Both the position numbers and the translations under genes were made by a program. This document shows positions 1-58,463 of a stretch of 64,000 bases of DNA, in pieces. Source of the stretch: a virus. The stretch lies in IMG/VR virus record IMGVR_UViG_3300020183_005033, positions 1 through 64,000 of that record; one strand, written 5' to 3'. The notes beneath the pieces are model-generated. The model did no database searches. It saw nothing but the letters and a program-made list of their open reading frames with translations, and was not told the origin of the DNA. Within the stretch, counting starts at the first letter, position 1. Each line of letters begins with the position of its first letter.

Positions 1-72
1 GCCATCCAAAGGCTTGGCAGGACTTGGAACGCTATTGTTAAAATGGGCAAGGAGTTAGACAAGTTGCCATGA
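1..72 (+). CDS. 3' end of upstream gene (partial)
   Basis: Frame 1 is open from base 1 to a TGA at 70-72 that overlaps the next ATG (ATGA coupling). Confidence 0.5.
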   Translation, partial: AIQRLGRTWNAIVKMGKELDKLP

Positions 73-3000
73 AAACACTCAAAGACCTAACAGACAGAAT
101 TGCTGCAGAACACGGCTTGGAGTGGTATCGACCGCTTAATAAAGCCGAAGATTCTGCCGGAATGACGGCTATTGACTTGGGTAATGGCTATTCGCTGCAC
201 CATGAGCATTCTGAGAACGGCCATGACATTTGGGCTGTTGGGTTTAACGGCGAGCGTGCTGGCACCTTCATGTTAAGAACAGAAGACACTCGCAGAGGCA
301 AGCCCATGGTTGCTTGGGCTGGCCTAGAGAAGCCACATAGAGGTAAAGGTATCGGAACCCTTGCCTATAAGGCGTTAGCTGTTCATTACGGTGGGCTAGA
401 CTCAGACAAAGCATCGTCATCCGATGAAGCCGTTAAGGCTTGGATAAGGGCTGGCGGGCGTCAAATGAAGATAAAAAGTCAATTTGGCAAGCCTCGTTAT
501 ACTTTAGATGGAGACAAGAAACGCCCTGTTGTGCAGTGGAATGAAGAGTTAGTAAAAGCCCCAATGATGAACGAAGGGAATGCTTGGCAAGAACCTGTTC
601 AGACCGGACTAAGGGATTCTGACATAGAAAAAATTAAAGAAGGCGTTAGCGGTAATCATACAATAAAAACTTTTAATCTTCCGAATGATTTATACCACCA
701 TGTAATTACTCATAATAATAGATTCGTGGAACATATTATTTCCGATGACGAAGACCCTTTTGCAAACGGAATCACTCGCGTAGCTGGAGATATTAATGAA
801 AATGGGCACTTAATTATCGGCAGTTCTCAGACTGAACCATACCATCAAAATAAAGGATATGGAAAGCTTGCCTACACACAGGCTCTAAATTATCACGGCG
901 GATTAGTAAGCGATGTGGATTTATCTTATACGGCTAATTCTATTTGGAAACATTTAAAAACTTTGCCAAATGTTGATGTAAAGTTTGGAAAAAAAGGAAC
1001 GCCGCAAAGGCATCTTGCTACTTTAAAAAAATCCTCCGACCTTAACACTCTCATCCAACAAGCCAAAGCTCGCCTTGAAGGCGTTAGGAAGGTTGGCTCT
1101 CAAGAGCCGCGCCCCATGATATTTGCCAATAAAGATGGGACAAAACACGGTTTTGTGACTGTAGACCCTTCTAAACAAGGCCAATGGCGTGTCACTCACT
1201 TTGTAAACAACAAGCCTGCAGGCCATACAGAAGCACCGACTTTCAGCCACGCTATTAAGGCTGCACACGATTCTAGCTACAACGTCTTTAAGGAAATTCG
1301 TGAAGAAGAGATGTTTAAGTCTCAGATTTTACAAAAAGAAATAAAGACTGTTTTTCACGGGTCAAGAACCCCTGTTGATAAATTTTCTCAGGAAGAAGCA
1401 AACAAAAGAATAGGCAGATGGGGAGCGGGAGTTTATTTTGCCGACAATCCCAAAGAAGCACAAAGTTACGGACAAAATGTTTATCAAACTCAAATAGATA
1501 CAGATAAACACTTGGATTTGCATACTGATTTTGATATTAATAAGTTTAATCAGTATGCAACTAACCATCCAGACCAAAAAACAGTTAAAGAAATTAATGA
1601 TATAGCAAAAAATGTACCAAATCCAGATTATATCGACATGTTTGACCATGTGTCGCCAAACGACGAAAACAGAAAAAAAATGTTGTCAGAATTTATTAAA
1701 CATTCTGGCTACAATGGAGTTAGATACGAATTTAGAAACCCTTCTACCATTCAAACTTTGCTATCATTGCCAATTGCAGTTATGTTGCCAAATTTTGATG
1801 TAAACAAAATTCCCAAAAGAAAAAAAGGAAAAAACACTCAATCATACTACACAAAATTTGACACTGATTTTGATATTAGTAGAGCGGAGTCTCTCACAAA
1901 AGCTGCTCATCCGTCAGACCTCAAAAAACTTGCCAACAAAACAAACCCAGAAGCTAATGAAATTGTTGACGCGGCTCCTCATGCCATTCACACGCCCGAC
2001 CAAGAATACGTTGACTTTCTTAACCACCCTAAAGTTCAAAAAGGTTTAGGCAGTAGAGACGTAGGCGGAATCTCCGCAAAGATGGTACACAAGGTAGGCG
2101 ACAATACCTATATGGCCAAGCCCTACCACAAAAGAATCGAGTCTGCCACTAGGGCAATGAACCCTCATCCAATCTCTGGGTGGTCTACGATTGCTACAAA
2201 GAATCTTTTTCATTCTGCAGGAATTGGACATTTGTGTGAAGACGTAGCCTTTCACGAGCACAACGGCATTCCAATGACTGTTCATAAGTTTGCAACTGAC
2301 GCTCAACAATCTAATGTTTTACGCCACATTAAAGACTCTGAAACCGAAGCCGATGCTAAAAAAATAGCTATTATGGACTTTTTGACTAATAACCTAGACC
2401 GCCATGGTGGGAATGTAATGGTTCGCCAAAACAAGACAGGAAATTATAATCTTTTAGCTATTGACCATGAGAGGAACTTTCAGTACAACCAACCTGCCAG
2501 CTTAAGATACAGGGGTAATCCCTATGAAACACCCCGCGCCCATTTAATACACACTGGCCTAAAAGGCGCTGTCTCTACTCCTACTTGGATGGTCGATGAA
2601 GAAGAGACTCATGTACCAGAAGGGCAGACAACAAAACATTGGTGGAAAGCAAATAGAGATAACATATTAAATTCATTTAATAAAGATATAGAAAGTATTA
2701 AAGACCCGCACCTTAAAAAGCATATTCATACTAACTTTATGAGAAGAGCTGATTGGCTCGATGAATTTTCCCATCCAGACCACTATTCTTTTTTTAGTGA
2801 ACATAACAATTCCACTCCCGTTGAAATATTCAAGGAACGTCGCCCAAGAACAGACTACAAGGCAATCATGAAGAACTTGCCTGAAAACCCCTACAAGGCT
2901 ATTGGCGTTATTGACGGCCTGTTCTCTAAAAAGTTATCTTTTGCTACTAGAGAAACTCTCGCAGACCTTTGGAACGAACAAGTTGACAAGATGTCTGGAG

Positions 3001-3209
3001 AAGAGGTTGGAAATTACCTTAAAGATATACAAAAAACAAAAAATCATCCCCATCCCAAGGGAGTCTATTACTCTTTTATGAACAGATTGCTTGAAAAAAA
3101 TCATCGACAGGGAATGCAGCATTTAGTACAAAATAACATGATAGATTTGCCATATTGGAAAAATCTGTTTGAGATAAGATTAAAACTGGGGGCAATGAAA
3201 AAACAATGA
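69..3209 (+). CDS. Multidomain polyvalent/polyprotein: GNAT, GNAT, small domain, ADP-ribosyltransferase-like, PI3/4-kinase/HipA-like kinase
   Basis: GNAT motif A (HRGKGIGTLAY; HQNKGYGKLAY); ART-like FHGS...GAGVYFADNPKEAQSYG...GYNGV; kinase AKPY...NLDRHGGN...AIDHE; domains separated by LNKA/LVKA/LKKS/MFKS/LTKA. Confidence 0.8.
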   Translation: MKTLKDLTDRIAAEHGLEWYRPLNKAEDSAGMTAIDLGNGYSLHHEHSENGHDIWAVGFNGERAGTFMLRTEDTRRGKPMVAWAGLEKPHRGKGIGTLAYKALAVHYGGLDSDKASSSDEAVKAWIRAGGRQMKIKSQFGKPRYTLDGDKKRPVVQWNEELVKAPMMNEGNAWQEPVQTGLRDSDIEKIKEGVSGNHTIKTFNLPNDLYHHVITHNNRFVEHIISDDEDPFANGITRVAGDINENGHLIIGSSQTEPYHQNKGYGKLAYTQALNYHGGLVSDVDLSYTANSIWKHLKTLPNVDVKFGKKGTPQRHLATLKKSSDLNTLIQQAKARLEGVRKVGSQEPRPMIFANKDGTKHGFVTVDPSKQGQWRVTHFVNNKPAGHTEAPTFSHAIKAAHDSSYNVFKEIREEEMFKSQILQKEIKTVFHGSRTPVDKFSQEEANKRIGRWGAGVYFADNPKEAQSYGQNVYQTQIDTDKHLDLHTDFDINKFNQYATNHPDQKTVKEINDIAKNVPNPDYIDMFDHVSPNDENRKKMLSEFIKHSGYNGVRYEFRNPSTIQTLLSLPIAVMLPNFDVNKIPKRKKGKNTQSYYTKFDTDFDISRAESLTKAAHPSDLKKLANKTNPEANEIVDAAPHAIHTPDQEYVDFLNHPKVQKGLGSRDVGGISAKMVHKVGDNTYMAKPYHKRIESATRAMNPHPISGWSTIATKNLFHSAGIGHLCEDVAFHEHNGIPMTVHKFATDAQQSNVLRHIKDSETEADAKKIAIMDFLTNNLDRHGGNVMVRQNKTGNYNLLAIDHERNFQYNQPASLRYRGNPYETPRAHLIHTGLKGAVSTPTWMVDEEETHVPEGQTTKHWWKANRDNILNSFNKDIESIKDPHLKKHIHTNFMRRADWLDEFSHPDHYSFFSEHNNSTPVEIFKERRPRTDYKAIMKNLPENPYKAIGVIDGLFSKKLSFATRETLADLWNEQVDKMSGEEVGNYLKDIQKTKNHPHPKGVYYSFMNRLLEKNHRQGMQHLVQNNMIDLPYWKNLFEIRLKLGAMKKQ

Positions 3210-3871
3210 TTCTTCATATTAAAAGTCATATGACTAGCTTCGAGCACTCAGTTCCTGCAAACTATGAAGGAATCAAAAGCCTTTTTGATATGTTTCCTGC
3301 TGTAGAACAAATAGTTGCACACCATCAAACCCTTAAGGGAGCTATCGACGAGATTGTTGAGTACCTTAGCTCTCACCATATGGATGCTTGGCTGTCTGCA
3401 GAATCACCTCTCAAAAAAGCAGAAGACATGTCTCGCGTCTCGTCAATCGTTGTCTCTACTGAAGACAAGATGCTGATGCTCCAAAGACGTGACAATAAGA
3501 AGTGGACGTTCCCTGGGGGTCATCTGAATGACACAGAGACTCACCTTCAAGGAGCTATCAGGGAGCTATGGGAAGAAGCTGGCATCAAAGCTAACCCAGA
3601 CAAGATGGTTCTATTGGGCAACAAGAAGACATTTCAAGGAAAAGACATCTACGTTTACCTTTATATGGTTTCATCAGAGATGGCAGCATCTGCCGCCAAC
3701 GACCCAGACAAAGAAGCTCAAAAATTTCAATGGATTCCACATATTATCCCCAAAGAGATTGAAGACAACCTCTATATCCCTGTAGGAGACAACGCTTCTT
3801 TGAGTATTTTTAGTAAGTGGCTTCTTAGGAAGAAAGTCGATGCTCTTAAGAGCAAGCTAAAGAAAGATTAA
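3206..3871 (+). CDS. Nudix hydrolase with N-terminal extension
   Basis: Nudix box GGHLNDTETHLQGAIRELWEEAGI; LKKA motif just before the Nudix domain. Confidence 0.85.
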   Translation: MILHIKSHMTSFEHSVPANYEGIKSLFDMFPAVEQIVAHHQTLKGAIDEIVEYLSSHHMDAWLSAESPLKKAEDMSRVSSIVVSTEDKMLMLQRRDNKKWTFPGGHLNDTETHLQGAIRELWEEAGIKANPDKMVLLGNKKTFQGKDIYVYLYMVSSEMAASAANDPDKEAQKFQWIPHIIPKEIEDNLYIPVGDNASLSIFSKWLLRKKVDALKSKLKKD

Positions 3872-39628: not shown

Positions 39629-40360
39629 ATGGATATCAAAAATTTGCTAGAAGAAATCAACAGCTTGACAGAGCAAGTTGAAAAGCTTGCAAAGTCAGAC
39701 ATGTACAAGGCAGAAGGCGAAGAGAAAGAAGAAGGCGCTGAGATGGAAGGCGGCGAAGCTGCTCCTGCTCCAGAAATGGAAGGCGGCGAAGCTGCTCCTG
39801 CTCCAGAAATGGAAGGCGGCCAACCTGACCAAATTGAAGACCAAGCTGACCAACTTGAAGATGCCGCTGAAGAAGGTGGAGAGTCGCTAGACGAAGTCGT
39901 TAAGGCTCTTGATGACGAAGATCTTCAGGAACTCATGGCTGCTGTTCAGGCTGAAATGGCTCAACGTCAAGGTGGTGCCGAAGGCGCAGCTCCTGCACCT
40001 GCTGCTCCCGAGATGGGCAAAGCTGTCCCTCCAATGCACAAAGCTATGGACGACATGAAAAAGACTATGGACGAAATGAAGAAGTCAATTGACGGCCTCC
40101 GCGCTGAAAATGCTTCTCTCAAGAAGTCAACTCCTGTCAGCCGTCCTGCAGCAATGAACCGCGCTGAAGTTCAGACAATGGCTAAGTCGGATTCTGTTCC
40201 AGAGATGCTCAATAAGTCCGAAGTCGTTGAGTATCTTCTCAACACCAAGGCTCCTGTAGCTCTTGTTCAGGATGCTAACTGGGCTAATAGTCCCGCCGAG
40301 CTTCGCGATGTTTATTCCAAGGCTGAACTCATGGGCGTGAAAATCCCAACTAAGAAATAA
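39629..40360 (+). CDS. putative head scaffold/inner-core protein
   Basis: Acidic, coiled-coil, with about nine [LMY]xK[SAT] motifs; strong codon bias. Confidence 0.55.
   Translation: MDIKNLLEEINSLTEQVEKLAKSDMYKAEGEEKEEGAEMEGGEAAPAPEMEGGEAAPAPEMEGGQPDQIEDQADQLEDAAEEGGESLDEVVKALDDEDLQELMAAVQAEMAQRQGGAEGAAPAPAAPEMGKAVPPMHKAMDDMKKTMDEMKKSIDGLRAENASLKKSTPVSRPAAMNRAEVQTMAKSDSVPEMLNKSEVVEYLLNTKAPVALVQDANWANSPAELRDVYSKAELMGVKIPTKK
39743..39820. repeat. 33-bp tandem repeat (MEGGEAAPAPE)
   Basis: atggaaggcggcgaagctgctcctgctccagaa x2 plus a partial copy. Confidence 0.85.
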
Positions 40361-40709: not shown

Positions 40710-41097
40710 GATAGTAGTCCAACAAGCTTCTGTTTCAAATGAAGTGATTGTTGAAAAACTATCTGAACTGTCTGACCACGTTAAAGATATTAAAAAGAAT
40801 GTAGAAGCTGTAGAAGTTCTGTCAATTAATTCTGACAAAACCCTAGCCGTTCAGGCACAGCAACTTGCCGAGCATATGCGCCGCACCGATGCACTTGAAA
40901 ACCTTGTTAAACTCAATAAAGTAGAATTAGAACATCAAGATGCTCAAGTGTTTACAGAACAAAAAGAACTACTTACTAAAGTAAGTGAAGTGTCAACTCA
41001 AATTTCAAACATTAAAAACTTTGTTGCTTGGTCTGTTGCGGGTATTGGCTTAATTGCCAGTGTTGCGCAGGTCGTTATTAGATTGTTGGTGAAATAA
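40645..41097 (+). CDS. coiled-coil protein with C-terminal TM
   Basis: Heptad pattern, hydrophobic C-terminus. Confidence 0.6.
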   Translation: MSEKKNNSSRKLQSVSSPRTSKIVVQQASVSNEVIVEKLSELSDHVKDIKKNVEAVEVLSINSDKTLAVQAQQLAEHMRRTDALENLVKLNKVELEHQDAQVFTEQKELLTKVSEVSTQISNIKNFVAWSVAGIGLIASVAQVVIRLLVK

Positions 41098-42695
41098 TGG
41101 CTAAGAAGAGATTCAACCTCAAGGCTAAGCACAAATCCAAGAAAGGCGGCTTGACCGCTGAAGGAAGACGTGCCTATAACCAAGCCACTGGTAGCAACCT
41201 TAAACGCCCTCAGCCAGAAGGTGGCTCAAGAAAAAAGAGCTATTGCGCCAGAAGCAAAGGTCAGATGAATGACCATAATATTGACTGCTCAAAGACTCCG
41301 GACAAAAGAATTTGTTTGGCTAGAAGACGTTGGAAATGCAACAAGTCTCTTCAAAAGTCAGACATGCCTCCAAAAGCAAAACTAGCCGCATTCCTTAGAG
41401 AGCACTTAGATAATAAGCTTGCTCTCAAAGAAGCAGAACCAACCATCACAAAATCCAATGAACTTGTTGGCGGTAAGGGCGATACTAAAGACATTGCAGA
41501 TTTCGACCCTAAACAAGTCCAAATGGGCCTCAAAGTAGAGTTAGAGCATACAGACAATCTTGAAGTTGCAAAAGAAATCGTTGCTGACCATCTTTCCGAA
41601 GACCCTTTTTATTACAGCAAGCTTAAAGGTTCTGGTTTGGCAGATGAGCTTAAGAAGGCAGGCCGCTGTTGGGAGGGTTATGAGCCAACCCCCGGCAAGA
41701 AGCCATATTCAAAAGGTTCGTGTCGCAAGATTAAGAAGTCTTTAAAACAAAAACTTATAAAGGCTCTTGCCTGTAAAGGCGAAAAGCTAAATAAATCTAT
41801 TTCTGCTATGGCTATTGAGTCCGGCGAATATCAAGGCGAACCTTTAGACAGCCACCACCATAACCGTATTGGTCAAGAGTACCGAGGTATGGCTAAACAA
41901 GCCTTCACCGAAGGAAAGAAGGCAAAAGCCAGAGAGTATCACGAGAAGGCTCTCAAGCACTTTCAGATGGCTGATAAGATGGGCTTCCAACAGGAAGAGC
42001 CACTCGAAAAAAAAATAAGCGATAAGTTGCGTACACTTGGAATAGGTGCTGCTATAACTGCAGGGTCAATTGCAACGCCTAATCAAACTTCTATGTTTGC
42101 AGACAAACCGCCTGCAACTGAAAAAAAGTTAGAGGCACCTCCTGTAGCTCCAGAAAAAATTACTAAACTTTCTCAACTATCTGCTGGCAACCCTCTTCAT
42201 ATGTTTTTGTGGAATATTGCCCAAAAAGAGTCAAGCGGCGGAGAAAATACAAATCATCCCACAATCACAGACCCAAAATCAATGCACTATGGCATGAGAG
42301 CTATTGGCAATTTTGCTTTAATGCCATTGACTGTGCAAGAATTTACAAACAGATATAAACGAAACGGCGGTAAAGACCCACGTATTTTAAAAATCTTAAA
42401 AATGAATGCACCGTCAGGCGAAATTAATACTTATCTTGAAAAAAACCCAGATATAGAGTTTGAGTTGGCTGGAAATGCTGCAAACCATGTGTTAAAAACT
42501 CATGGATATACCCCAGAGGCGGCATATGCTTGGAAGTATGGACATAACAAAACTGCTCAAAGTGTAAAATCTCCTGAGAGTCAGGCAAAAATGAAATCAG
42601 ATAGTTATGTAAGTGATTTTAAACAATTATTAGAAGGTGGTTCTCCAAAAGGATTGACGCCAGCAACTAAAATGCCAAAACCAAATATCAAGTAA
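41097..42695 (+). CDS. Modular polyprotein: DUF6321-like, DUF5661-like, CWxGY module, lysozyme/transglycosylase-like domain
   Basis: KGGLT.EGR..YN...GSNLK..SYCAR..RWKC; MG.KVELEHT....A.EI..DHL.EDP.YYSKL; CWEGY; IAQKESSGG..G.FALMP; LxK[SA] linkers. Confidence 0.7.
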   Translation: MAKKRFNLKAKHKSKKGGLTAEGRRAYNQATGSNLKRPQPEGGSRKKSYCARSKGQMNDHNIDCSKTPDKRICLARRRWKCNKSLQKSDMPPKAKLAAFLREHLDNKLALKEAEPTITKSNELVGGKGDTKDIADFDPKQVQMGLKVELEHTDNLEVAKEIVADHLSEDPFYYSKLKGSGLADELKKAGRCWEGYEPTPGKKPYSKGSCRKIKKSLKQKLIKALACKGEKLNKSISAMAIESGEYQGEPLDSHHHNRIGQEYRGMAKQAFTEGKKAKAREYHEKALKHFQMADKMGFQQEEPLEKKISDKLRTLGIGAAITAGSIATPNQTSMFADKPPATEKKLEAPPVAPEKITKLSQLSAGNPLHMFLWNIAQKESSGGENTNHPTITDPKSMHYGMRAIGNFALMPLTVQEFTNRYKRNGGKDPRILKILKMNAPSGEINTYLEKNPDIEFELAGNAANHVLKTHGYTPEAAYAWKYGHNKTAQSVKSPESQAKMKSDSYVSDFKQLLEGGSPKGLTPATKMPKPNIK

Positions 42696-42703
42696 GGTGT
42701 GTT

Positions 42704-45475
42704 ATGAACTTGCCAGTTTTCCCAAGAACACAAATTACTCACCCGCCTGCATATAAAGGCAAACCAAAACTATATCCTATTATTTATCCCCATGAGCCTT
42801 TAATGAAGGCAGGATTCAAACAACTTAAGCAGATGTTCCCTAACACAAATGAACACGACCATGTTTTGAAATGGGCTGCCGACAATATAAAACACAATGA
42901 TTTGCAGAGTTTATACTTAAGACATTACAAACAAAATCCTCAAATTCACACAGAAGATAATAAAAACAAATTAGGTCACATTAATGGAATGATGGACATT
43001 TCTTCTGAAATGAAGAATGTCAAACTTGATAAAAATGATACTCTTGAGTCGGCTTTCAAGAAATACGATGATGCAGAACATGCTTGGCGACAAGGAAGTG
43101 GAAGTAGATATATCGAGGCTGAAGGTAAGCCAGTCGTTGACTTTGGAGATGGATGGGGTTGGTTTGATTTAGGAAAAAATATTTGTAAAAAAGAAGGCGG
43201 TGCTATGGGGCACTGCGGAAATACAGGTGACTCCCACGACGATGACAAAATACTTTCATTAAGAAAAGTTGTAAAAGTTGGAGACAAAACTTACCATGAG
43301 CCAGCACTGACTTTTATTAATAATAAAGGTTGGTTAGGGGAAATGAAGGGAAGGGCTAACTCTAAGCCTGCAGAATCATATCACAAAAGAATTGTTGAAT
43401 TAATGAAACATCCCGATATTAAGGGGATGGTTGGGGCTGGTTATATGCCAGAAAACAACTTTCATTTTGATGATTTATCTCAAGAACACAAAAATCAAGT
43501 CAGAGTGTCAAATCCAAATTTCGTTGACTTAAGAAGTGATGATTGGGATGAAAAACAAAAAATATTTGCATCTGACTCTGTTCCAAAAATTGAAAAATAT
43601 CAACATACTGTAAAAGATATTTTTCAAGGAAAAAGATTAAAAGAAGGATTAGATTCTGGAAAGTTAAATATTGATGATTTAGGAGTAAATGACTTAAGGC
43701 TGTTAACAAAACATCGTCTTTTTCAGAAAAATCATCTTTTAGAACTTATTACAGAACAGGACAGTTTTAAAGATGGTCGGTCAAGAGCGCATGCTTTGAT
43801 GGCGGCTAAAAATTCTAAACATTTAGACGACGAAGTGATTAGTCATTGGGTTAATAGAAATGCTTCTTCAGCAGCTCAAGTTTTAGGTAATAAATTAAAT
43901 GCACAACATATTGACACTATTGTACAAAATAACCCAGACGCAGCAGCAGAATATCTCAAAAACCACAAAGACTTTAACGCACAACATATTCAAACTATTG
44001 CAGAAAACAATCCATATTCAGCAGTAAAACATCTCAAAGACCATCCTTTATTTAACGCACAACATATTGACACTATTGTACAAAATGCCCCAAGGGCAGC
44101 AGCAGAATATCTCAAAGACCACCCTTTACTTAACGCACAACATATTCAAACTATTGCAGAAAAAGACCCAGATGCAGCAGCATATTATCTCAAAGACCAC
44201 CCCATCTACAAAGCCAAATACGGCAAAGTACAAAAATCATTACAAAAAACACAACAACTTGAAAAAGTCCTAGTCTCTGAACCATCAGAAGGCGTCGCCA
44301 AGGTTGCTAAGTATGACGGCATGAGGTCGCATGAGACTCTTGTTAGTACGTCCCTAGTACCTCATCAACGCTTTGGGAACGTCTACGTCCATCACTTTGC
44401 ATCTGATGATAACACTCACGCTCGACATTTAGTGTCGATGTATCACGACCCACACAAAGACGGCGTGTCTGTCCTCCATGCTGCTAAACAAAACGAAGAC
44501 GAGCCAATGACTGTCTATACAGCAGCAACTCGTCCTGAGTTCCAAGGCAACAAACTCAACTACTTGGCACTCAGAGAAGCAGTCAAGGCTCACGGCACAC
44601 TGCATTCAGACGTTATGCAGTCTAAGCCAGCCTTCAAAAACTGGAACAGACTCAAGCAAGAATCTGGATTTAAGGTCAACCTTACAAAACCATACAGAGA
44701 AGCGTCTTCAGACGATGCCTCTCTGTTGCCCCATATTGCTCAGTACAGCAAACAGGCTGAAAGGTCGCAAGACATGGAAAAGGCTGTAACTCCTGAACAA
44801 CAAAAAGAAAATATTAAAAAACAAAGAGAACTTAAAAATAAAGAGATTATTGCAAAACTCAAGTCAAAAGTTGTAGACAAGGCTCCTGCCAAAGACCCCT
44901 CTACACAGCCCAAACTTCTTATGTCAGAAGACGATTCACCTGCAGGCATTCCAATCTATCTTAAGACACATCCAAGCCATGACTCCCTTGCAGGCGTCCA
45001 TGTCCATGTTGATAAGCTACCTAGCTTAGAAAACTATGGTTTACTAGACGAACCAAGAATCGACAGAGCATTGGACTCGGCAGACTCAAAAGGCCACAAA
45101 GCAGTTTACGTTAGTGCAGACCAAATAGAAGAGTCTGCTAAAAAACCTAAACTTCAATTAGTGAAGAGTCTCAGAAAGGCACTTTGGCCGTCTGCCCCTA
45201 AAGTCGTTAATGGTCAGTACGCAAAACCATTCTCAATGGGCGGCACCAAAAAAGACAAAAAGCCCATTCAAAGTCACTTTGGTCACCCAGACCATGCCAA
45301 GTTTAATGCTCAAGAGCATCTCGATGCTTATTGGAGACACCAAGAAAAGATTAAGCAAAATCCCAAGATGGAGTCATCTCTTGTGAACTTCCATAAGCAA
45401 CAGGCTCAGCAGCATTGGGACAAGAGCAAAGAGCTAGTAGATGCTCACGATACGAGTCGGCAAATCAAACAGTAA
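42704..45475 (+). CDS. Modular polyprotein: PcfJ-like domain, 26-aa helical repeats, GNAT-like domain, small modules
   Basis: EGGAMGHCG..ILSLR..P.LT..GEMKG..N; RPEFQGNKLNY; LMKA/VQKS/LEKV/MEKA/LVKS linkers. Confidence 0.7.
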   Translation: MNLPVFPRTQITHPPAYKGKPKLYPIIYPHEPLMKAGFKQLKQMFPNTNEHDHVLKWAADNIKHNDLQSLYLRHYKQNPQIHTEDNKNKLGHINGMMDISSEMKNVKLDKNDTLESAFKKYDDAEHAWRQGSGSRYIEAEGKPVVDFGDGWGWFDLGKNICKKEGGAMGHCGNTGDSHDDDKILSLRKVVKVGDKTYHEPALTFINNKGWLGEMKGRANSKPAESYHKRIVELMKHPDIKGMVGAGYMPENNFHFDDLSQEHKNQVRVSNPNFVDLRSDDWDEKQKIFASDSVPKIEKYQHTVKDIFQGKRLKEGLDSGKLNIDDLGVNDLRLLTKHRLFQKNHLLELITEQDSFKDGRSRAHALMAAKNSKHLDDEVISHWVNRNASSAAQVLGNKLNAQHIDTIVQNNPDAAAEYLKNHKDFNAQHIQTIAENNPYSAVKHLKDHPLFNAQHIDTIVQNAPRAAAEYLKDHPLLNAQHIQTIAEKDPDAAAYYLKDHPIYKAKYGKVQKSLQKTQQLEKVLVSEPSEGVAKVAKYDGMRSHETLVSTSLVPHQRFGNVYVHHFASDDNTHARHLVSMYHDPHKDGVSVLHAAKQNEDEPMTVYTAATRPEFQGNKLNYLALREAVKAHGTLHSDVMQSKPAFKNWNRLKQESGFKVNLTKPYREASSDDASLLPHIAQYSKQAERSQDMEKAVTPEQQKENIKKQRELKNKEIIAKLKSKVVDKAPAKDPSTQPKLLMSEDDSPAGIPIYLKTHPSHDSLAGVHVHVDKLPSLENYGLLDEPRIDRALDSADSKGHKAVYVSADQIEESAKKPKLQLVKSLRKALWPSAPKVVNGQYAKPFSMGGTKKDKKPIQSHFGHPDHAKFNAQEHLDAYWRHQEKIKQNPKMESSLVNFHKQQAQQHWDKSKELVDAHDTSRQIKQ
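43897..44205. repeat. 78-bp coding tandem repeat, about 4 copies (NAQHIxTIxxxxPxAAxxYLKDHPxF)
   Basis: Directly visible; A/C-rich. Confidence 0.85.
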
Positions 45476-45532
45476 CTATAGTTTCTATTAAGTAATTTAA
45501 AAGAAACTATAATTTCAGTTATAGAGGACTAT

Positions 45533-45787
45533 GTGTCAGACAAAGAAGAAGAATTGCCAGACAATGTCTATCCTTACAGTCACTTCAGGCTTAGGCAGTT
45601 CTCTGAAGAAGTCAAAAGGCAATTGCCCAAGGAGCTATGGGATAACCCGCCAGATGCCGACCGCAACGAAAAGATTAAAAAAGCCCTAAATAAACAATCA
45701 AACATTGTTGATAGGATAAAATGGGACAGGGCCGTTACGACTCAGAAGAGCAAGGCAAATCTTAAACTTGTGAAAGACGAAGAATGA
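45533..45787 (+). CDS. hypothetical protein
   Basis: GAGGA RBS; ends NLKLVKDEE. Confidence 0.6.
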   Translation: MSDKEEELPDNVYPYSHFRLRQFSEEVKRQLPKELWDNPPDADRNEKIKKALNKQSNIVDRIKWDRAVTTQKSKANLKLVKDEE

Positions 45788-48700
45788 AGCCATTGTTTTC
45801 ACAAAAATTTGCAATTTTAACGGCTGAAAATCCCCGTTACGGGTCAGCCGAAGGTGGAAACGCGGCTCTTGAGCAAGAAATGAAGGCTAAAAACCTTAAG
45901 TTTACCCCCATGAAGGGTAAGTACGGCACCCCTGAAAACTCTTATTTAGTAGAAAATCCAGACCATCAAGACATTTTGTCTTGGGGCAAGAAATACGGCC
46001 AAGATTCTGTAATTGTTTCTGACGGCGGTTTACACAAGATGGTCTATACAAATGGGCCGCACGAGGGGCTATGGCATGAAGGGCATTCAATTACCATTCA
46101 TAACCAAGAGCCAGAAGACTTCTATTCAACTATTAACTTGAACAACAAGCCAACCCATTTCACAATTGACTTCGATATGGATAAAAAGCATGGTAATCCT
46201 ATGAAAAAAACATTAAACAAAATGCTAAAGTCTTTGTTTCCTCAAAAATTACCTTTGTATTCTGAGTACATAGAACCACTACAAAAGGGCGAGAAGTTTC
46301 CTCATTTTTTAAAATTCATGGGCAACCACCCTAAAGCCCAAGAAACAGCTCAATGGGCTGATGAAAATATAAAACACAGAAATTTGGCTGAGTTAGCTAT
46401 GCGTCATGCAAAAACTAAGCCAGAAGGTCTTAACGACGAAGAAAAAACTCACGTTAAGCACTTTAATGATTCACTGCATATGCCAGAAGTTCAAAAGGCT
46501 GCCGGTTTGATAACAAGTCAGCATGATTTTGCTAGTGGAATTGGGCTATTGAAGGAAGCAGAATCTGCTTATCAAAAAAGACATGCAAAAGAAGCCCCTA
46601 CGTTAGTTCCGACGGAAGGAGAAAAGTTATTAGATTTTGGCGATGGAGTTGGTGTTTATAATTTAGGTAAAAGCAAAAACGCAAACGAAGCAAAAGCAAT
46701 GGGCCATTGTGCTACTCCGCATAAAGGCGGAGAATTGTGGTCTATTAGACGCGACCACGGTAATGGAATGGTTGAGCCTTTAGTAACTATATCGCACGAA
46801 GGCGGCTATCTTGGTGAGATGAAAGGAAAACATAATTGGAAGCCATCAACAAAACATCACGGACATATTGCTAAGTTGTTGGCGTCCGATAAGATTAAAG
46901 GGTTTGTTGGAGGAGGGTATGCTCCAGAGAGTAACTTTGAAATTTCTGATTTAAGTGAAGGACTTAGGAATAAATTATTAGAATATAAGCCATCTTTAAT
47001 TCAAAAAGTTTACAAAGAAAATTTGCCAAAAGGGTTTCAAGGAGACTATAGTCATACTCCTGAAATTAAAAGTATTTTTAATACAAGTGATTTAGCTGCT
47101 CAACAAAAATATTTAGCAAAATTTAGTAAAAATACGCCCAGTCATATAAATGTTCGCTACAACGTAGCAAAAAACCCAAATACACACCCAGACATTCTTC
47201 ATAAACTAGCAGTAGACTCTGACGAATATGTTCGCACAGGCATAGCAGAAAACCCAAATACACACCCAGACATTCTTCATAAACTAGCAGTAGACTCTGA
47301 CGAAGATGTTCGCAGAGGCATAGCAGAAAACCCAAATACACACCCAGACATTCTTCATAAACTAGCAGTAGACTCTGACGAATATGTTCGCAGTAACGTA
47401 GCAAAAAACCCAAATACACACCCAGACATTCTTCATAAACTAGCAGAAGACTCTGACGAAGATGTTCGCTACAATGTAGCAAAAAGCTCAAATACACGCC
47501 CAGACATTCTTCATAAACTAGCAGTAGACTCTGACAAATATGTTCGCACAGGCATAGCAAAAAACCCAAATACACACCCAGACATTCTTCATAAACTAGC
47601 AGTAGACTCTGACGAATATGTTCGCACAGGCATAGCAGAAAACCCAAATACACACCCAGACATTCTTCATAAACTAGCAGTAGACTCTGACGAAGATGTT
47701 CGCAGAGGCATAGCAAAAAACCCAAATACACACCCAGACATTCTTCATAAACTAGCAGTAGACTCTGACGAATATGTTCGCACAGGCATAGCAGAAAACC
47801 CAAATACACACCCAGACATTCTTCATAAACTAGCAGTAGACTCTGACGAAGATGTTCGCAGAGGCATAGCAAAAAACCCAAATACACACCCAGACCTTCT
47901 CCACAAACTAGCAGTAGACTCTGACAAATATGTTCGCACAGGCGTAACACTAAACCCACAATTCAAAAATTTACCGCTAGAAATACAACAAAAAGCAAGA
48001 CCACTTGTAAAGACACCTATTCAAAAAATTATTGCCATGATTAATGATGGCGAAAATAACCCAGACTCTGCTCGTCAAGCAACAGAAGAACTAAAATTAC
48101 GCCGCCAAGAAAAATACGACAAAATTCTTTCTCCAGAAGGAAACTTAAGTGATATTCAGCATTTATCTGAATCACACGATAATGATATTGCAAAACGAGC
48201 TAGAGATGAGTTGAAGCGCAGAGGATTACAAAAATCTCTTAAAAAATCAGACTCTCCTAAACACCTAATCCATTTCTCTACTACCCCTAAACTCACCACC
48301 CTAGACCCAGAGTTTCAAGGGACGGCGGGCAGGCACTCTCCTGAGACTAAGCACGGCAAACCCACCCACCCTAGAGTCTACTTCTATGAAGAAGGTACGC
48401 CGACAGAGTCAGTAGTGACAGGTGGAGCTAAGTCAAAATATATCATCAAACACCCCGGAGATGATAAAATCATTGATATTGCTAAAGACACCGAAGGCTT
48501 ACAACAACAAGCTAAGGAGCAATGGCTGCAGAAACCAATTGGTAGTATGCAGGATGCTTACTTTAAGTTGTTGAAAGATAAAGGTTATTTAGGCTTTAAG
48601 AACTCGGCAAGTGGTCTTCCTAATGTAGTGGCGATGTTTCACGCAACCCCGGTACACGCAGAAGTCCCCATGCCAAAAGATATGTCAGCAAACCCAGATT

Positions 48701-49611
48701 GGACAAAGGCGGAAGTACCTATGAGTCTCAAAAAGTCAGATGTAAAAGAAGCCGTAGAGAAAATCAAAGGCCCCGCCAAAGTTAATGAAGTCCTAGACGC
48801 TGCTCAACCTGACATGCGCTCTAAAATTCTCGCTGCTCTTCGTAAAGAGAAACTTGCTAAGATGAATGGTACAGGAATCCCTGGGACTGGTGGAGCCACC
48901 CCTCCTGCAATGCGTCCACCTGTACCCGCAGCTCCTGCATCTATGGCTATGTCAAAAGCCGATGAGTCTGAAAGCCATATGGCTAAAAAAGACCTCAAAG
49001 ACATCATGGAGTATGCTCAAGCTCTTGATAAGATGGTTGTTGAATCAGAAGACCTTGAGGATTGGGTAGACTCAAAGATTACAGTTGCAAGACAGTATCT
49101 TTCTGATATTGCTCATTATTTGTCATACGAGCATGGTCAACCAACTGAAGAGTTGGACAAAGGCGACGTTGTTAGTATAAAAGACAAAAAAGTCATTTCA
49201 ACTGACACTAAAGCAGCTCCTAAAACTATGGTTGCCAAACAACCAACTGCCGCTGTTTACAAACGAGGAACGGAACTCGCAATTGATAGTGGTTGGAAAG
49301 GCGATGCCGGAAAAACAGGCGGAAAGCCTGACCTTTCTCTTGTAAAGTCTAAAGCTAAGTTCGAGCGTTGCGTCCTTGCCGTTAAACAAAAATCAAAAGA
49401 CAAAGTTAACCCATGGGCAGTCTGCCATGCTTCCGTTGGTGATGCTAAAAAATCAGAAGACCTCGAAAAAGCTGAAATGAAGGTTAAAGAGCAAGAGAAG
49501 CCCACGAAGGGAATGCCTCAAGCTAAGCAACTCAAGGCCGATGCCGACTTAGAGAAGATTAAAGAAGGCGCAGAAAACGTAGCTAAGGCTGCGGATAAAA
49601 AAAAAAAGTGA
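45784..49611 (+). CDS. Modular polyprotein: DUF3293-like, PcfJ-like, LRV/HEAT-like repeats, ART-like domain, small modules
   Basis: AILTAENP; EAKAMGHC..LWSIR..P.VT..GEMKG; 10 LRV repeats; IHFS...RVYFY...GYLG; many LxK[SAG] linkers. Confidence 0.72.
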   Translation: MKPLFSQKFAILTAENPRYGSAEGGNAALEQEMKAKNLKFTPMKGKYGTPENSYLVENPDHQDILSWGKKYGQDSVIVSDGGLHKMVYTNGPHEGLWHEGHSITIHNQEPEDFYSTINLNNKPTHFTIDFDMDKKHGNPMKKTLNKMLKSLFPQKLPLYSEYIEPLQKGEKFPHFLKFMGNHPKAQETAQWADENIKHRNLAELAMRHAKTKPEGLNDEEKTHVKHFNDSLHMPEVQKAAGLITSQHDFASGIGLLKEAESAYQKRHAKEAPTLVPTEGEKLLDFGDGVGVYNLGKSKNANEAKAMGHCATPHKGGELWSIRRDHGNGMVEPLVTISHEGGYLGEMKGKHNWKPSTKHHGHIAKLLASDKIKGFVGGGYAPESNFEISDLSEGLRNKLLEYKPSLIQKVYKENLPKGFQGDYSHTPEIKSIFNTSDLAAQQKYLAKFSKNTPSHINVRYNVAKNPNTHPDILHKLAVDSDEYVRTGIAENPNTHPDILHKLAVDSDEDVRRGIAENPNTHPDILHKLAVDSDEYVRSNVAKNPNTHPDILHKLAEDSDEDVRYNVAKSSNTRPDILHKLAVDSDKYVRTGIAKNPNTHPDILHKLAVDSDEYVRTGIAENPNTHPDILHKLAVDSDEDVRRGIAKNPNTHPDILHKLAVDSDEYVRTGIAENPNTHPDILHKLAVDSDEDVRRGIAKNPNTHPDLLHKLAVDSDKYVRTGVTLNPQFKNLPLEIQQKARPLVKTPIQKIIAMINDGENNPDSARQATEELKLRRQEKYDKILSPEGNLSDIQHLSESHDNDIAKRARDELKRRGLQKSLKKSDSPKHLIHFSTTPKLTTLDPEFQGTAGRHSPETKHGKPTHPRVYFYEEGTPTESVVTGGAKSKYIIKHPGDDKIIDIAKDTEGLQQQAKEQWLQKPIGSMQDAYFKLLKDKGYLGFKNSASGLPNVVAMFHATPVHAEVPMPKDMSANPDWTKAEVPMSLKKSDVKEAVEKIKGPAKVNEVLDAAQPDMRSKILAALRKEKLAKMNGTGIPGTGGATPPAMRPPVPAAPASMAMSKADESESHMAKKDLKDIMEYAQALDKMVVESEDLEDWVDSKITVARQYLSDIAHYLSYEHGQPTEELDKGDVVSIKDKKVISTDTKAAPKTMVAKQPTAAVYKRGTELAIDSGWKGDAGKTGGKPDLSLVKSKAKFERCVLAVKQKSKDKVNPWAVCHASVGDAKKSEDLEKAEMKVKEQEKPTKGMPQAKQLKADADLEKIKEGAENVAKAADKKKK
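47152..47958. repeat. 78-bp coding tandem repeat, 10 copies plus a partial (LRV-type VRxxIAxNPNTHPDILHKLAVDSDEx)
   Basis: Near-identical units visible in DNA and protein. Confidence 0.95.
49597..49607 (+). other. A11 homopolymer joining 45784..49611 to the +1 frame ORF ending at 50848
   Basis: The +1 frame is open from 49583 and reads KKSELNKSGYF... into the 49718 ORF. Confidence 0.7.
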
Positions 49612-49717
49612 ACTGAACAAATCAGGTTATTTCAAAGAAGACAAGAAGACTCAACTTCCCAAGTGGCATGACCCTCTCAAAGAACAGAGAGAGGCCGCTG
49701 CACAGGAAGAACGTGAG

Positions 49718-50848
49718 TTGCGCCCAGAAAGCAAAATGCACATTTGGGCTGAACTTGAGCGTCATCACCAAATGTCTGAAAAGCCTAAAACTCAAAAGCC
49801 AAAAGAAGAATTAGAAAAAGGCAAGAATGTTCGCAAGCAGCGTGAAGCTGTATTTGGAGGATGGAAGACATCTGCAGGTTCACCCCGTAGAGAAAAACAA
49901 ATTTCTGCCCTTGCTGATATGATTAAGAGAAGGTTTGGATTAGAAGCTCAACGCGCCCCCGGTAAAGTAGCTGCATCTGGCAAGGTAATCGACAAACCAA
50001 GCTTTCATGACAATGTTGTTGAACATATCGGAAATCCCGACTCTCTCGCTCATGAAGTTGGTCACCTATACCAATACGGCAAAGACATGGAGTCTATCGA
50101 CCCTCGTAAAGAATTTAAAACCAAAGAACAATCACTCGGTGATTGGCAAAAAGACATGGACGCTCATTGGGGCGACCTAAATGTCAAGCATGGTTATAAA
50201 AAACAAGCGCAAACGGCAGAAGAGTATGAGCCAACTGCTTTAGAAAACTACTACCGCCGCAGAGCAGGCTTGCCGACTCATCAAAAAACGGCATCCACCG
50301 AAGAAGAAAATAGAATAGAGTCTGAAAAAAGAGGCAAAAAATACAAAAAGCCAGCAATTTCAAGAACTCAAGCAGTTGACGACCCCTCTAAAGAAATTGT
50401 TCAAAAGGTAAAAGTTAAAGGTAAAGACGGCAAAGAGAAAGAAGTTTGGTTGACTGGTTCTATGAAGAACCTAACAGATAAGACAAGAGAGCTTGTAGAC
50501 CAAATTGACAGGGGCGAACTTATGTTAGACCCAACCCGTGGGTATGTTGAGGGTACATCTGTTGACGCTAAGATTAACCGCCGCGCCCGTGCAGCTTCTA
50601 AGGACAAGACACGTAAAGACGCCGACACTCTTATGCGCTCAGACGAAGTCCTTGAGAAAAAACTCATCATTGGCGAAAACAAACCATCAAAGGCAACTAA
50701 GAAGGCAACCCCAGAAAAGCACAAGGCAATTATGGATAAACTTAGTGCTGCTCTCGATACGATTCAAATAGACACCTCCCCTGAAGCTGTAAAAGAGCGT
50801 AAAATGCTACTTGAACATGTAAAACACAAGCTTAAGGGAAGAAAATAA
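49718..50848 (+). CDS. Polyprotein continuation with HExxH metallopeptidase-like domain
   Basis: SLAHEVGH...E; LEKG and LEKK linkers; weak TTG start. Confidence 0.65.
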   Translation: MRPESKMHIWAELERHHQMSEKPKTQKPKEELEKGKNVRKQREAVFGGWKTSAGSPRREKQISALADMIKRRFGLEAQRAPGKVAASGKVIDKPSFHDNVVEHIGNPDSLAHEVGHLYQYGKDMESIDPRKEFKTKEQSLGDWQKDMDAHWGDLNVKHGYKKQAQTAEEYEPTALENYYRRRAGLPTHQKTASTEEENRIESEKRGKKYKKPAISRTQAVDDPSKEIVQKVKVKGKDGKEKEVWLTGSMKNLTDKTRELVDQIDRGELMLDPTRGYVEGTSVDAKINRRARAASKDKTRKDADTLMRSDEVLEKKLIIGENKPSKATKKATPEKHKAIMDKLSAALDTIQIDTSPEAVKERKMLLEHVKHKLKGRK

Positions 50849-56927: not shown

Positions 56928-58463
56928 ATGACGACCGGTTATCAGTTTGTAGGCCAGCAAGACATGGCCAAGATTCGTGAACGCCTTGAGCGCATGGCGA
57001 AATCTTTCAACGCCATTGGTTACCAAGGAATGCAGAACGCTGGCCGTACAGGCATCAGCGCTCTTACTATCGACAGCGCCGACCCTGTCATGTACGCAAT
57101 CTGCGCACAGGAAAAGCAGCTCAAGTTGATGAAAAATGTTAAGACCCTCAAAGCTACACAGCCTGTTTACTTCTATAAAGTACAGACTGCTATCGCTACT
57201 CAGGGCCTCGACCTTGCTGGTTTTGAAAACTTCATGCCACAAGAAGACCAAGCTCAGTATGAGCAGGTTGCTGAACCACTCAAAATCTATGGTATCAAGA
57301 AGACTCTTGGCGACATGGTTCGTCTAACTAACGAAGCAGGTGGATTCTTTGACGGTATCGACATTGAAAAAGAAAACGAGCGCAACGCTGCTATGGCTCT
57401 TTCAACACAGTTTGAGCGCGATGGTTATGCCGGCGGTGACTACTACGTTGACGCTTCAGGCGCTATCGACGTTGAAACTCCCTTGAAATTCCTTGGTAAC
57501 CGCCGCATTCCAGCTATCCGTCAGCTCCGTGGTATTCAGAACAACATCCGCGAAGGCGAAAGAGCTACTCGTGGTTCTACTCCAGACTTCGTTGCTTACG
57601 GAAACAGCTTCTCCGTTGTTCAAGACCTTAAGGGCAAAGCACTTGACCAAGAAGTTCTTGACGATACAACTACAGCAGTTGTCTCGAACGCGGGTGAAGT
57701 ATCAGAAGCTCACGCTACTCCAGCTCAAATCGCTGAGTTCCGTAAGACTTTCTTCGGTCTTCAACGTGGTGACATCGCTCAGAACTTTGCAATCCGTGGA
57801 CCTGACCTCAGCAACGCTGAAGAAGGTGGATTCGCGATTATGTCTGTTAGCGGTCTAGTTAAGTTCATTCCTGCTATCTACAAGCACTCTGTTCGTCAGA
57901 AGGCTCTTCCAGTTAGCGGAACTAACGGCGTACCTCCTTCAACTCCAGTTATTGCTTCTGCAGCTTTGACTGTTGGTTCAGTTGGCTCAGAACTCAAAGT
58001 TGGCGACAAAGTCAAGTTCTTGGTTCAGGCTACTTCAATCTTCGGCATCAGCTCACCAGCTATGTCCGCTGAATTGACTGTAACTGTTGATGGTCAGGGC
58101 GTTGACCTCTCTATCGCTGCTCAGGCTGACGCTGAAGCATTCATGGTCTTCATGACTCCTCGCGAAGCTGCTGGTAAGGCTGGTTCAGAAGGATTCGTTG
58201 GTAAAGTAGTTAAGGCTGCTTCTGGCGCAACTGCATTCAAGTATGTCGGCGCAGTAATGCCTGGCTATGAAAGCGTACTCTTCATGCCTTCAAGCGAAGA
58301 CCGCGTTAAGTTGGCTGTTCTTGGAAACCTCCTCAATAAGTCTGACCTTGGTCGTCAAGGTTTGGCTCTTGAGAGCGTATTCAGCTCGTACTTGGCTGTT
58401 GTTCTTCATAAGCCACGTTCGTTCGCTCTTCTTGACAACGTCAAGCAACGCCGCCGTATCTAA
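56928..58463 (+). CDS. major capsid protein precursor (Herelleviridae-like)
   Basis: N-terminal ..MAK|SF..GY.G....G..AL pattern like phage K/A511 capsid; strong codon bias, AAGGAG RBS, terminator. Confidence 0.8.
   Translation: MTTGYQFVGQQDMAKIRERLERMAKSFNAIGYQGMQNAGRTGISALTIDSADPVMYAICAQEKQLKLMKNVKTLKATQPVYFYKVQTAIATQGLDLAGFENFMPQEDQAQYEQVAEPLKIYGIKKTLGDMVRLTNEAGGFFDGIDIEKENERNAAMALSTQFERDGYAGGDYYVDASGAIDVETPLKFLGNRRIPAIRQLRGIQNNIREGERATRGSTPDFVAYGNSFSVVQDLKGKALDQEVLDDTTTAVVSNAGEVSEAHATPAQIAEFRKTFFGLQRGDIAQNFAIRGPDLSNAEEGGFAIMSVSGLVKFIPAIYKHSVRQKALPVSGTNGVPPSTPVIASAALTVGSVGSELKVGDKVKFLVQATSIFGISSPAMSAELTVTVDGQGVDLSIAAQADAEAFMVFMTPREAAGKAGSEGFVGKVVKAASGATAFKYVGAVMPGYESVLFMPSSEDRVKLAVLGNLLNKSDLGRQGLALESVFSSYLAVVLHKPRSFALLDNVKQRRRI

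Follow-up and report, generated by a model that had tools for sequence, protein, structure and literature searches.

Whether the long strings of unrelated modules that some phage genes encode act as single chains or come apart, and in the latter case by what means, is the question raised by a stretch of 64,000 nucleotides (nt) that forms the first 64 kb of one 122,436-bp contig (IMG/VR virus record IMGVR_UViG_3300020183_005033; this whole stretch is referred to as the window). Between an acidic scaffold-like open reading frame (ORF) and the major capsid protein gene sit ORFs A-D, all on the same strand, and a preliminary description of the window had remarked that a short motif, [L/M]-x-K followed by S, A or G, recurs at nearly every boundary between their modules. 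It had proposed that these ORFs are packaged into the prohead, cut there by the head protease, and injected with the DNA as effectors. We consider it reasonably probable, at roughly 60%, that A, B and C-D serve as polyvalent cargo of the head and are cut up by the prohead protease. The data themselves show the statistics of the motif, its conservation, its position in linkers and its coincidence with cassette breakpoints; packaging, cutting, injection and effector roles are inferred.

A recurrent tetrapeptide in three large genes

The genes concerned are as follows; in site names the arrow marks the predicted cut behind the lysine (P1).

41097-42695, plus strand: ORF A, 532 residues, described from Pfam matches and an AlphaFold2 model
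42704-45475, plus strand: ORF B, 923 residues, no Pfam family
45784-49611, plus strand: ORF C, 1275 residues, 14 motif sites
48727, 48949, 49153, 49339, 49462 and 49579: LKK↓S, MSK↓A, LDK↓G, LVK↓S, LEK↓A and VAK↓A, the separators of the small modules of ORF C
49597-49607, plus strand: A11 homopolymer ending ORF C, seen in three-frame translation
49609-50848, plus strand: D frame, the C-terminal continuation of C in 15 homologs; the ORF as listed spans 49718-50848 (376 residues)

Thirteen of the motif positions given in the preliminary description were checked, and all hold the tetrapeptide named for them, twelve exactly and LEKK with a displacement of 1 nt (42003). The list is one of real sites, from which LEKK, LQKT and LEKV have to be set apart as lying outside the description's own pattern. 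Matches to [LMIV]xK[SAG] number 6 in A, 7 in B, 14 in C and 1 in D, against 3.0, 4.05, 6.3 and 2.0 expected from shuffles that preserve composition, and C is the sole ORF that is individually significant (0 of 1000 shuffles reach its 14 sites). Pooled over A-D (3106 residues, 1000 shuffles), we count 28 matches against 15.3 expected (1.8-fold, post hoc p about 0.001); for [LM]xK[SA] the figures are 16 and 5.5 (2.9-fold), and for [LM]xKS 9 and 2.5 (3.6-fold, post hoc p about 0.001). Shuffling within blocks of 20 residues gives the same result, which argues that local composition is not the cause of the enrichment. Nine control patterns (reversed, shifted, with R or E at P1, or with other residue classes at P3 or P1') stay at 0.6-1.3-fold, none of them significant, while the half-pattern [LMIV]xK alone reaches 1.38-fold. 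Among the 123 remaining proteins of the genome (32,912 residues) the motif occurs at 0.83-1.05 times expectation. Enrichment over a lysine-rich background (the lysine content of these proteins is 11-15%) had been named as a check, and the motif does exceed chance in the pool with the controls flat; the excess in A-D amounts to roughly a dozen sites, and of the 28 loose matches about half are background.

Two further properties of the sites are informative. The sites had been selected without regard to acidic residues at P5 or P4, and such a residue is present at 12 of 21 sites in head proteins and 9 of 20 in A-D, compared with 10 of 54 other sites (Fisher p 0.0016 and 0.024, respectively). The codons used at the sites are diverse, so that the constraint acts on the peptide and not on the DNA. 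Counted over homolog cells, sites are retained in 98 of 103 for the A family and 108 of 117 for the C-D family, and control patterns in 37-82%.

ORF A allows the sites to be placed relative to predicted domains. Its first half consists of DUF6321 (residues 12-79; Pfam 1.1e-17), a 32-residue spacer, DUF5661 (Pfam 2.3e-9 over 136-177, about 122-182 when extended to the profile ends) and a small cysteine-containing piece, and these are followed by a 19-residue piece, a helical module, a hydrophobic helix and a C-terminal lytic-transglycosylase-like domain. The AlphaFold2 model of ORF A (104-sequence alignment) has a mean predicted local distance difference test (pLDDT) score of 76, with internal segments below 50 at residues 84-90, 114-128, 180-189, 227-231 and 315-355. 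An overlay on predicted domain borders had also been suggested as a check, and in this sole confident model four of the six cuts fall in such a segment or at most 2 residues from one (binomial p 0.013); all four short linkers contain a site, and the control, K[SAG] dipeptides without the P3 residue, is found at these segments in 3 of 18 cases. The sites are:

41349-41360, plus strand: LQK↓S, residues 85-88, directly after DUF6321, in segment 84-90; kept in 21 of 21 homologs
41445-41456, plus strand: ITK↓S, residues 117-120, directly before DUF5661, in segment 114-128; kept in 20 of 21 homologs
41649-41660, plus strand: LKK↓A, residues 185-188, directly after DUF5661, in segment 180-189; kept in 20 of 20 homologs
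41730-41798, plus strand: IKK↓S, LIK↓A and LNK↓S, with the 19-residue piece between two sites
42003-42014, plus strand: LEK↓K, before the hydrophobic helix, outside the strict motif (K at P1')

LNK↓S adjoins segment 227-231, and IKK↓S and LIK↓A lie outside the low-confidence segments. LEK↓K stands in an EEPLEKK context in every relative covering this stretch (22-sequence alignment). Behind EEPLEKK (window 42003-42080) come the hydrophobic helix, a 40-residue low-confidence linker and the lytic-transglycosylase-like domain, and downstream of that helix relatives have either of two versions of the C-terminal domain. In a Foldseek comparison of the ORF A model with the PDB, SLT and other lytic transglycosylases rank first at E 0.4-1, which is not significant and a weak hint; against viral models the matches are DUF6321 and SLT/LT_GEWL proteins, and one hit at 1.5e-4 has a root-mean-square deviation of 23, none of which alters the reading. 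A PDB sequence search with ORF A returned chance-level rows only at E≤1.

ORF C begins with a module of residues 1-143, followed by MLK↓S and LQK↓G, a B-like domain (164-437) and LRV repeats, and behind LQK↓S-LKK↓S (48226-48249) it continues as five to six small modules separated by the sites given above. Pfam matches are LRV at 1.5e-40, DUF3293 at 7e-4 and S-AdoMet_lyase at 0.007, the last two being weak. Several homologs have DUF3293 or SAM-lyase families in precomputed Pfam annotation, and module 1-143 (window 45784-46212) may be anti-restriction.

The four consecutive ORFs of the preliminary description are more properly regarded as three genes. With one A fewer in the A11 tract (A10), the frame of C continues into D through ...KKKSELNK↓S..., and L004 and L005 have A10 at this tract; because the two are fused in 15 homologs and these relatives have A10, we read C and D as one gene, and in relatives C-D is indeed one reading frame of 858-1400 residues. 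Fused homologs match D at 91% identity over their residues 483-858 and 627-1002. The tract stays at A11 in the contigs of X1 and X2, two runs that may be the source, and is shorter by one A in a contig of run X20 (another study) that is 95-99% alike. The A11 tract could reflect a true frameshift, transcriptional or translational slippage, or an assembly error. Within D, LEK↓G (49811) is followed by a region of about 340 residues with a conserved HEVGH (nt 50051-50065, D residues 112-116), whose two His and the Glu hardly vary among 15 homologs (alignments A4 and A5). Conserved strands lie upstream of HEVGH, and an invariant ...EEYEP... stands about 50 residues after it. The region looks like a zincin-type metallopeptidase, and D has no Pfam match even at E≤1. 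An AlphaFold2 model of P0130 (858 residues, the C-terminal half of C plus D; 17-sequence alignment) is unusable for domain borders because its mean pLDDT is 40.5.

ORF B runs from a 35-residue leader ending in LMK↓A through a domain shared with C (31-312) and an array of 26-residue helical repeats to a junction cluster, VQK↓S-LQK↓T-LEK↓V (nt 44228-44269), and a 410-residue C-terminal half that contains MEK↓A (44774) and LVK↓S-LRK↓A (45158-45181). The paralogous domain (B 31-312 versus C 164-437; 31% identity, E 9e-34) begins at EPLMK↓A in B and at EPLQK↓G in C. PcfJ was considered as its identity from an Atlas lead on 21-25% of cluster members and was not used, and a PDB sequence search with ORF B gave no match at E≤1. 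Homologs of B are fused to ART-PolyVal (in P0258), NUDIX, kinase, DUF5661 or DUF6321 domains according to precomputed Pfam annotation.

Cassette turnover among relatives

Two IMG/VR contigs and one 3.3-kb metagenome contig share the gene order at about 80-90% identity, with ORFs that are built differently, and scans for further relatives with conserved neighbors returned the same two contigs and the 3.3-kb contig only. Protein searches gave 31 close relatives of A, 18 of C and many of B. Pairwise insertions and deletions of at least 15 residues with well-matched flanks were grouped into insert families, the representative of each family was picked by flank identity and not by motif, and a hit was scored when both ends lay at most 3 residues from a predicted cut. 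In the A family, 10 of 26 insert families run from motif to motif, where 0.12 are expected (at most 2 in any of 1000 random trials). Five of the control motifs score none; the remaining one scores 3, as IKKS matches it as well as the motif under study. In the C family the count is 6 of 22 against 0.10 expected, with all six controls at 0; a further four are tandem duplications whose two ends are offset equally (one motif-to-motif period), and two events are changes in the number of LRV repeats. Alignment-based versions for the A family yielded 2 of 11 families (tolerance 1) against 0.01 expected and 3 of 21 events (tolerance 3) against 0.12. These lower hit rates come from a way of calling that we judged unreliable, because unrelated modules stack in the alignment and truncated proteins confuse it, and the pairwise method was preferred.

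The motif-flanked modules found among relatives include a GNAT-type module of 122 residues, modules of 98 and 140 residues, and the 19-residue piece. ITK↓S at 41445 is the insertion point for modules of 140 to 206 residues (P0014, P0018), and LKK↓A at 41649 for modules of 98, 124 and 140 residues, each of which ends in LEK↓A. At 41730-41798, relatives have a GNAT-type module of 122-126 residues, a 28-residue piece, or nothing, and the insertions and deletions here extend precisely between two motifs when the identical K/KS flanks are shifted; relative P0011 is named 'GNAT superfamily N-acetyltransferase' by its source and has a precomputed Pfam match to PF00583. Gene splits are located comparably. 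Residues 515-923 of B form a separate 416-residue gene in L004 and L005 that starts at the junction cluster, residues 827-1275 of C have a separate gene start in relatives exactly at the site cluster, and another C homolog starts just after LKK↓S. The L005 homolog of C lacks residues 138-816, with MLK↓S and LQK↓S-LKK↓S at the ends of the missing part, and the start of the stand-alone protein P0225 coincides with the predicted cut at LEK↓A in the fused P0224. A comparison of module order in related phages had likewise been proposed, and the order does differ, with breakpoints at the motif in the A and C families; insertion, deletion, duplication and splitting of cassettes is the pattern seen among relatives.

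Repeat arrays also vary among close relatives, in copy number (window 47150-47950 and 43850-44200), and the LRV/HEAT-like repeats of C account for a 208-residue difference in the otherwise 100% identical protein P0122.

A sister locus is found at the beginning of the window (69-3871).

69-3209, plus strand: second polyvalent protein, 1046 residues, with GNAT, ART-PolyVal and PI3/PI4-kinase-like matches

The pattern [LM]xK[SA] occurs five times in this ORF against 1.0 expected (p 0.003), as LNK↓A at residue 23, LVK↓A at 161, LKK↓S at 319, MFK↓S at 415 and LTK↓A at 609. Its ART-PolyVal match (Pfam, 33.5 bits with a cut-off of 31.2; residues 425-516) begins just after MFK↓S, and sites stand just before and after this domain. 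The 221-residue NUDIX protein that follows the ORF has LKK↓A 5 residues before its NUDIX match, and motif sites are present at the domain borders of the sister locus too.

Head proteins with the same site

39629-40360, plus strand: acidic scaffold-like protein, 243 residues, no Pfam or PHROG family
56928-58463, plus strand: major capsid protein, 511 residues, PHROG 752 major head protein (9e-13)
56994-57005, plus strand: putative maturation site MAK↓S, capsid residues 23-26, ending a 25-residue leader
genome 101582-103579: portal
genome 111912-112694 (L003 7912-8694): head-maturation-protease candidate, 260 residues

That the same motif is found at the N-terminus of the capsid protein and throughout the scaffold-like protein had been noted at the outset and is correct; it is also present at the N-terminus of the portal and in the tail of the protease candidate, and the link to capsid maturation is stronger than the preliminary description could know. 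Across five head proteins, [LM]xKS occurs 13 times against 1.2 expected (11-fold). The scaffold-like ORF, the most site-dense protein, has 9 sites against 1.2 expected, a number that 0 of 1000 shuffles match (LAK↓S, MYK↓A, VVK↓A, MGK↓A, MHK↓A, MKK↓S, LKK↓S, MAK↓S and LNK↓S, plus MKK↓T), and these are retained in the 83-85% identical proteins of L004 and L005; its scaffold role is a guess, since it belongs to no Pfam or PHROG family. In the portal, LSK↓S stands at residue 41 and further sites lie near the C-terminal end; behind its catalytic part, the protease candidate has a tail with LMK↓S, FMK↓S and LKK↓S; and in a 387-residue protein of the head region, likewise encoded outside the window, residue 59 marks LAK↓S.

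Searching 1.84 billion representatives without a profile yielded 73 relatives of the capsid protein. In a 20-sequence alignment that reaches down to 24% identity, the leader site has K at P1 in 20 of 20 sequences, S or A at P1' in 19, and L, M or V at P3 in 19, while the leader upstream of the site varies, so that the site resembles a conserved maturation cut. Among 50,697 phage records, tblastn with the major capsid protein matched 7 only, Myxococcus phage Mx1 and six Bacteroides phages, and identity to Mx1 and the Bacteroides (DAC) phages is 22-24%. The analogy that had been drawn with the capsid precursors of Herelleviridae does not hold as descent, given these matches. HK97 is the better anchor: its gp5 (GenBank sequence) reads ...FNK↓S at residues 101-104, and the delta domain has LTKS, LIKS and IQKA. 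We take S104 to be the residue with which mature gp5 begins. A literature search, which left most subscription journals outside its scope, gave no capsid cleavage data for Mx1, A511 or phage K and no HK97 site data beyond the sequence itself.

The protease candidate matches PHROG 1028 'head maturation protease' at 6.7e-6, has an Atlas feature score of 0.94 to Peptidase_S78 clusters (163 shared features, under the 170 typical of the same family) and aligns by BLAST to HK97 gp4 at E 0.009, with the similarity around a putative catalytic His and Ser, which we presume to be the catalytic residues. The candidate would on this weak evidence be HK97-like. It ends in a four-cysteine CxxC...CxxC segment behind the putative self-cleavage sites, which is unusual for the tail of a prohead protease and has a weak Pfam match to the eIF-5_eIF-2B zinc ribbon (0.0011).

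The same 122-kb contig encodes a tail sheath (genome 64441-67260) and baseplate proteins, and the phage is a tailed one with a contractile tail. It is uncultured; the public sequencing runs that hold the window are lake-water and freshwater metagenomes, with no RNA on record among them, and the 50,697 phage records contain no near-identical DNA to the region. An auxiliary metabolic gene for a GlpX-type fructose-1,6-bisphosphatase (genome 96744-97643, L002 12744-13643; Pfam 7.9e-111) adjoins a large terminase-like ORF.

Competing explanations and known systems

It is reasonable to postulate that A, B and C-D would be chains of independent modules, made late together with the head proteins. The modules, here or in homologs, would comprise DUF6321, DUF5661, GNAT, lytic-transglycosylase-like, SAM-lyase-like and PcfJ-like domains, LRV repeats and HExxH. 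The linkers would carry the sequence at which the HK97-family prohead serine protease of this phage cuts, roughly (D/E)-x-[L/M]-x-K with S, A or G behind it, and the capsid leader would end in this same site, which recurs throughout the scaffold-like protein and is present at the portal N-terminus and in the C-terminal tail of the protease. In the prohead, the protease would cut the chains and so free the modules as separate polypeptides, and these would stay in the head and exit with the DNA. Because a module would need only a site at each end, cassettes could be inserted, deleted, duplicated or split without loss of function. With respect to the polyvalent class, disparate domains in one chain are present in A and C-D (several of the assignments being weak), and the genes are phage-encoded in a virion and packaging context; none of the Pfam signature domains MPTase-PolyVal, ART-PolyVal and LPDs was found in A-D. 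The feature expected of prohead substrates, a motif common to the capsid, scaffold-like, portal and protease proteins, is present in A-D.

A number of results weigh against this reading. The motif was picked after inspection of the sequence, and the p-values for A-D are post hoc for that reason; A (p 0.08) and B (p 0.11) are not individually enriched, and D is under expectation. Sites 214 and 222 of A lie outside the low-confidence segments, and one is in a predicted helix. Sites 236, 294, 414 and 565 of C fall within the B-like domain or the repeats and are probably background. The A family has 16 of 26 insert families that miss the motif, five of which are one deletion in P0005 with its left end inside DUF5661. 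None of the 24 insert families of B is at the motif (0.04 expected; six controls 0), 22 of them being copy-number changes of the 26-residue repeat and the other two having offsets of (4,4) and (9,3). The protease candidate has no Pfam S78 match at E≤0.01 and no PDB sequence match at E≤1, and the conserved HExxH of D could be the processing enzyme instead. ORF B lends little support. The earlier statement that the motif is at nearly every boundary stands for ORF A and the C-terminal half of C, and could not be demonstrated for B or the repeat arrays. The interpretation as a whole is supported in part; the computational checks that had been named, on enrichment, linker placement and module order, did not refute it, and its packaging, cutting and injection steps are hypothetical.

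The simplest alternative is composition, as linkers rich in Lys, Leu and Ser would yield LxKS-like strings by chance. With the lysine content and the background share of the 28 loose matches given above this might be entertained, but global and block shuffles reject it at p about 0.001, nine controls of the same composition are flat, other lysine-rich proteins of the genome have no excess, and breakpoints coincide with the motif about 100 times as often as random expectation; we regard it as highly improbable. A conserved linker or docking element that is never cut, whether a packaging tether to the protease, the scaffold or the capsid interior, or a helix-capping linker, would account for a site in a predicted helix and for the 1.38-fold excess that [LMIV]xK already has alone in A-D. 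The position in the capsid leader and the ...FNK↓S of HK97 fit a scissile bond instead, stand-alone genes begin at the predicted P1', and the S/A/G class at P1' is kept in 92-95% of homolog cells, such that an uncut element is in our opinion unlikely.

Two other explanations accept cutting and differ in its agent or its purpose. The embedded zinc peptidase that the HExxH region of D may encode could cut the sites, in the head or after injection, with no involvement of the prohead protease; HEVGH is nearly invariant in its 15 homologs, D is fused to C in relatives, and release of domains by an embedded MPTase was proposed by Iyer et al. in 2017 (PMC5512222, in the available part of its text). 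We give this little credence, as the motif is also found in the capsid leader of distant relatives, in the scaffold-like protein, in the portal and in the tail of the protease candidate, all of them typical substrates of prohead proteases; no HExxH domain is encoded within A, B or ORF 69-3209, and D has no Pfam peptidase match even at E≤1. Alternatively, the prohead protease may cut A-D as core or scaffold parts that serve assembly only and are then degraded and expelled, not delivered as effectors. Many of the predicted products are peptides of 19-70 residues, comparable to the small fragments that the T4 core protein gp22 yields, and the neighboring scaffold-like protein is the most site-dense of all. 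Modules of an enzymatic type are, however, odd for a scaffold (GNAT in homologs, the weakly matched lytic-transglycosylase-like and SAM-lyase/DUF3293 domains, and ART-PolyVal and NUDIX at the sister locus), and a purely structural fate appears quite improbable to us. Delivery of head cargo cut by the prohead protease remains the reading that we prefer.

A bolder extension of that reading is doubtful at present, namely that the HK97-type protease site is a universal punctuation, head cargo a plug-in format, the pieces of 19-70 residues functional, and the A11 tract a slippage switch for the HExxH module. If it were so, a peptide or enzyme flanked by (D/E)x[L/M]xK↓[S/A/G] would be packaged within a carrier chain and released as a product of its own, and phages could shuffle, duplicate, split and fuse effector cassettes at the linkers. 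If the head protease does cut at these joints, as the preferred reading already has it, giant 'hypothetical' phage proteins would become lists of discrete products with starts and ends, among them products that travel in the capsid and are active before phage transcription, for example on the cell wall or on host defenses. The mosaicism of these genes among close relatives would be explained, and a testable design rule for loading foreign proteins into phage heads would be at hand. Were the principle general, with each phage using its own protease motif, the cargo repertoires of uncultured phages could be read from sequence.

Processing of internal head proteins by prohead proteases is established for T4 (gp21, with the IPs and Alt) and phiKZ (gp175). 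What we propose extends two published ideas, the release of polyvalent proteins by embedded peptidases and the trimming of ejection proteins by prohead proteases, and introduces no new category; the extension is a protease acting in trans that separates many modules. A literature search (with most subscription journals and supplements outside it) gave no description of trans prohead-protease sites punctuating polyvalent proteins. Polyvalent proteins, as described by Iyer, Burroughs, Anand, de Souza and Aravind in 2017 (PMC5512222), have two to fifteen disparate domains and lie near virion genes, and their packaging and injection are predicted; the available part of that article likens them to polyproteins and assigns the expected proteolytic freeing of their domains either to an embedded zincin-like MPTase or to an assemblin-like peptidase fused at the C-terminus. 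The present proteins resemble them as long multi-domain chains beside virion genes, and the sister ORF 69-3209 has ART-PolyVal itself. They differ in that a separate prohead protease is proposed in trans and that explicit sites, shared with head proteins, are at cassette breakpoints, whereas the same part of PMC5512222 names no cleavage motif between domains. The DarA, DarB and DdrB proteins of phage P1 are large head-packaged antirestriction proteins, some of them proteolytically processed, which act at injection (PMC5512222, available part). No homology of A-D to these was detected, and no common junction motif is described for them in that text.

The processing that we propose agrees with measurements on SPN3US, whose prohead protease gp245 recognizes and cuts one motif in the capsid, the portal, its own C-terminal tail and ejection proteins; this motif is A-x-E, and 13 of 14 mapped cuts remove N-terminal propeptides of single mature proteins, some propeptides being multiply cut (PMC10052503, in the part of its text available). 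The likeness is one motif across capsid, portal, protease tail and cargo, here as sites in sequence only, while the present phage has Lys at P1, a candidate protease that is HK97-like and not T4 gp21-like, and sites that separate many modules per chain. HK97 gp5 shares with our phage the F-N-K↓S of its maturation-site sequence and the L-x-K-S strings of its delta domain, and HK97 gp4 has a weak similarity to the protease candidate. To our knowledge, HK97 has no separate scaffold and no packaged cargo polyproteins; in the phage described here, by comparison, the capsid leader is only 25 residues long, and a separate acidic protein bears most of the sites.

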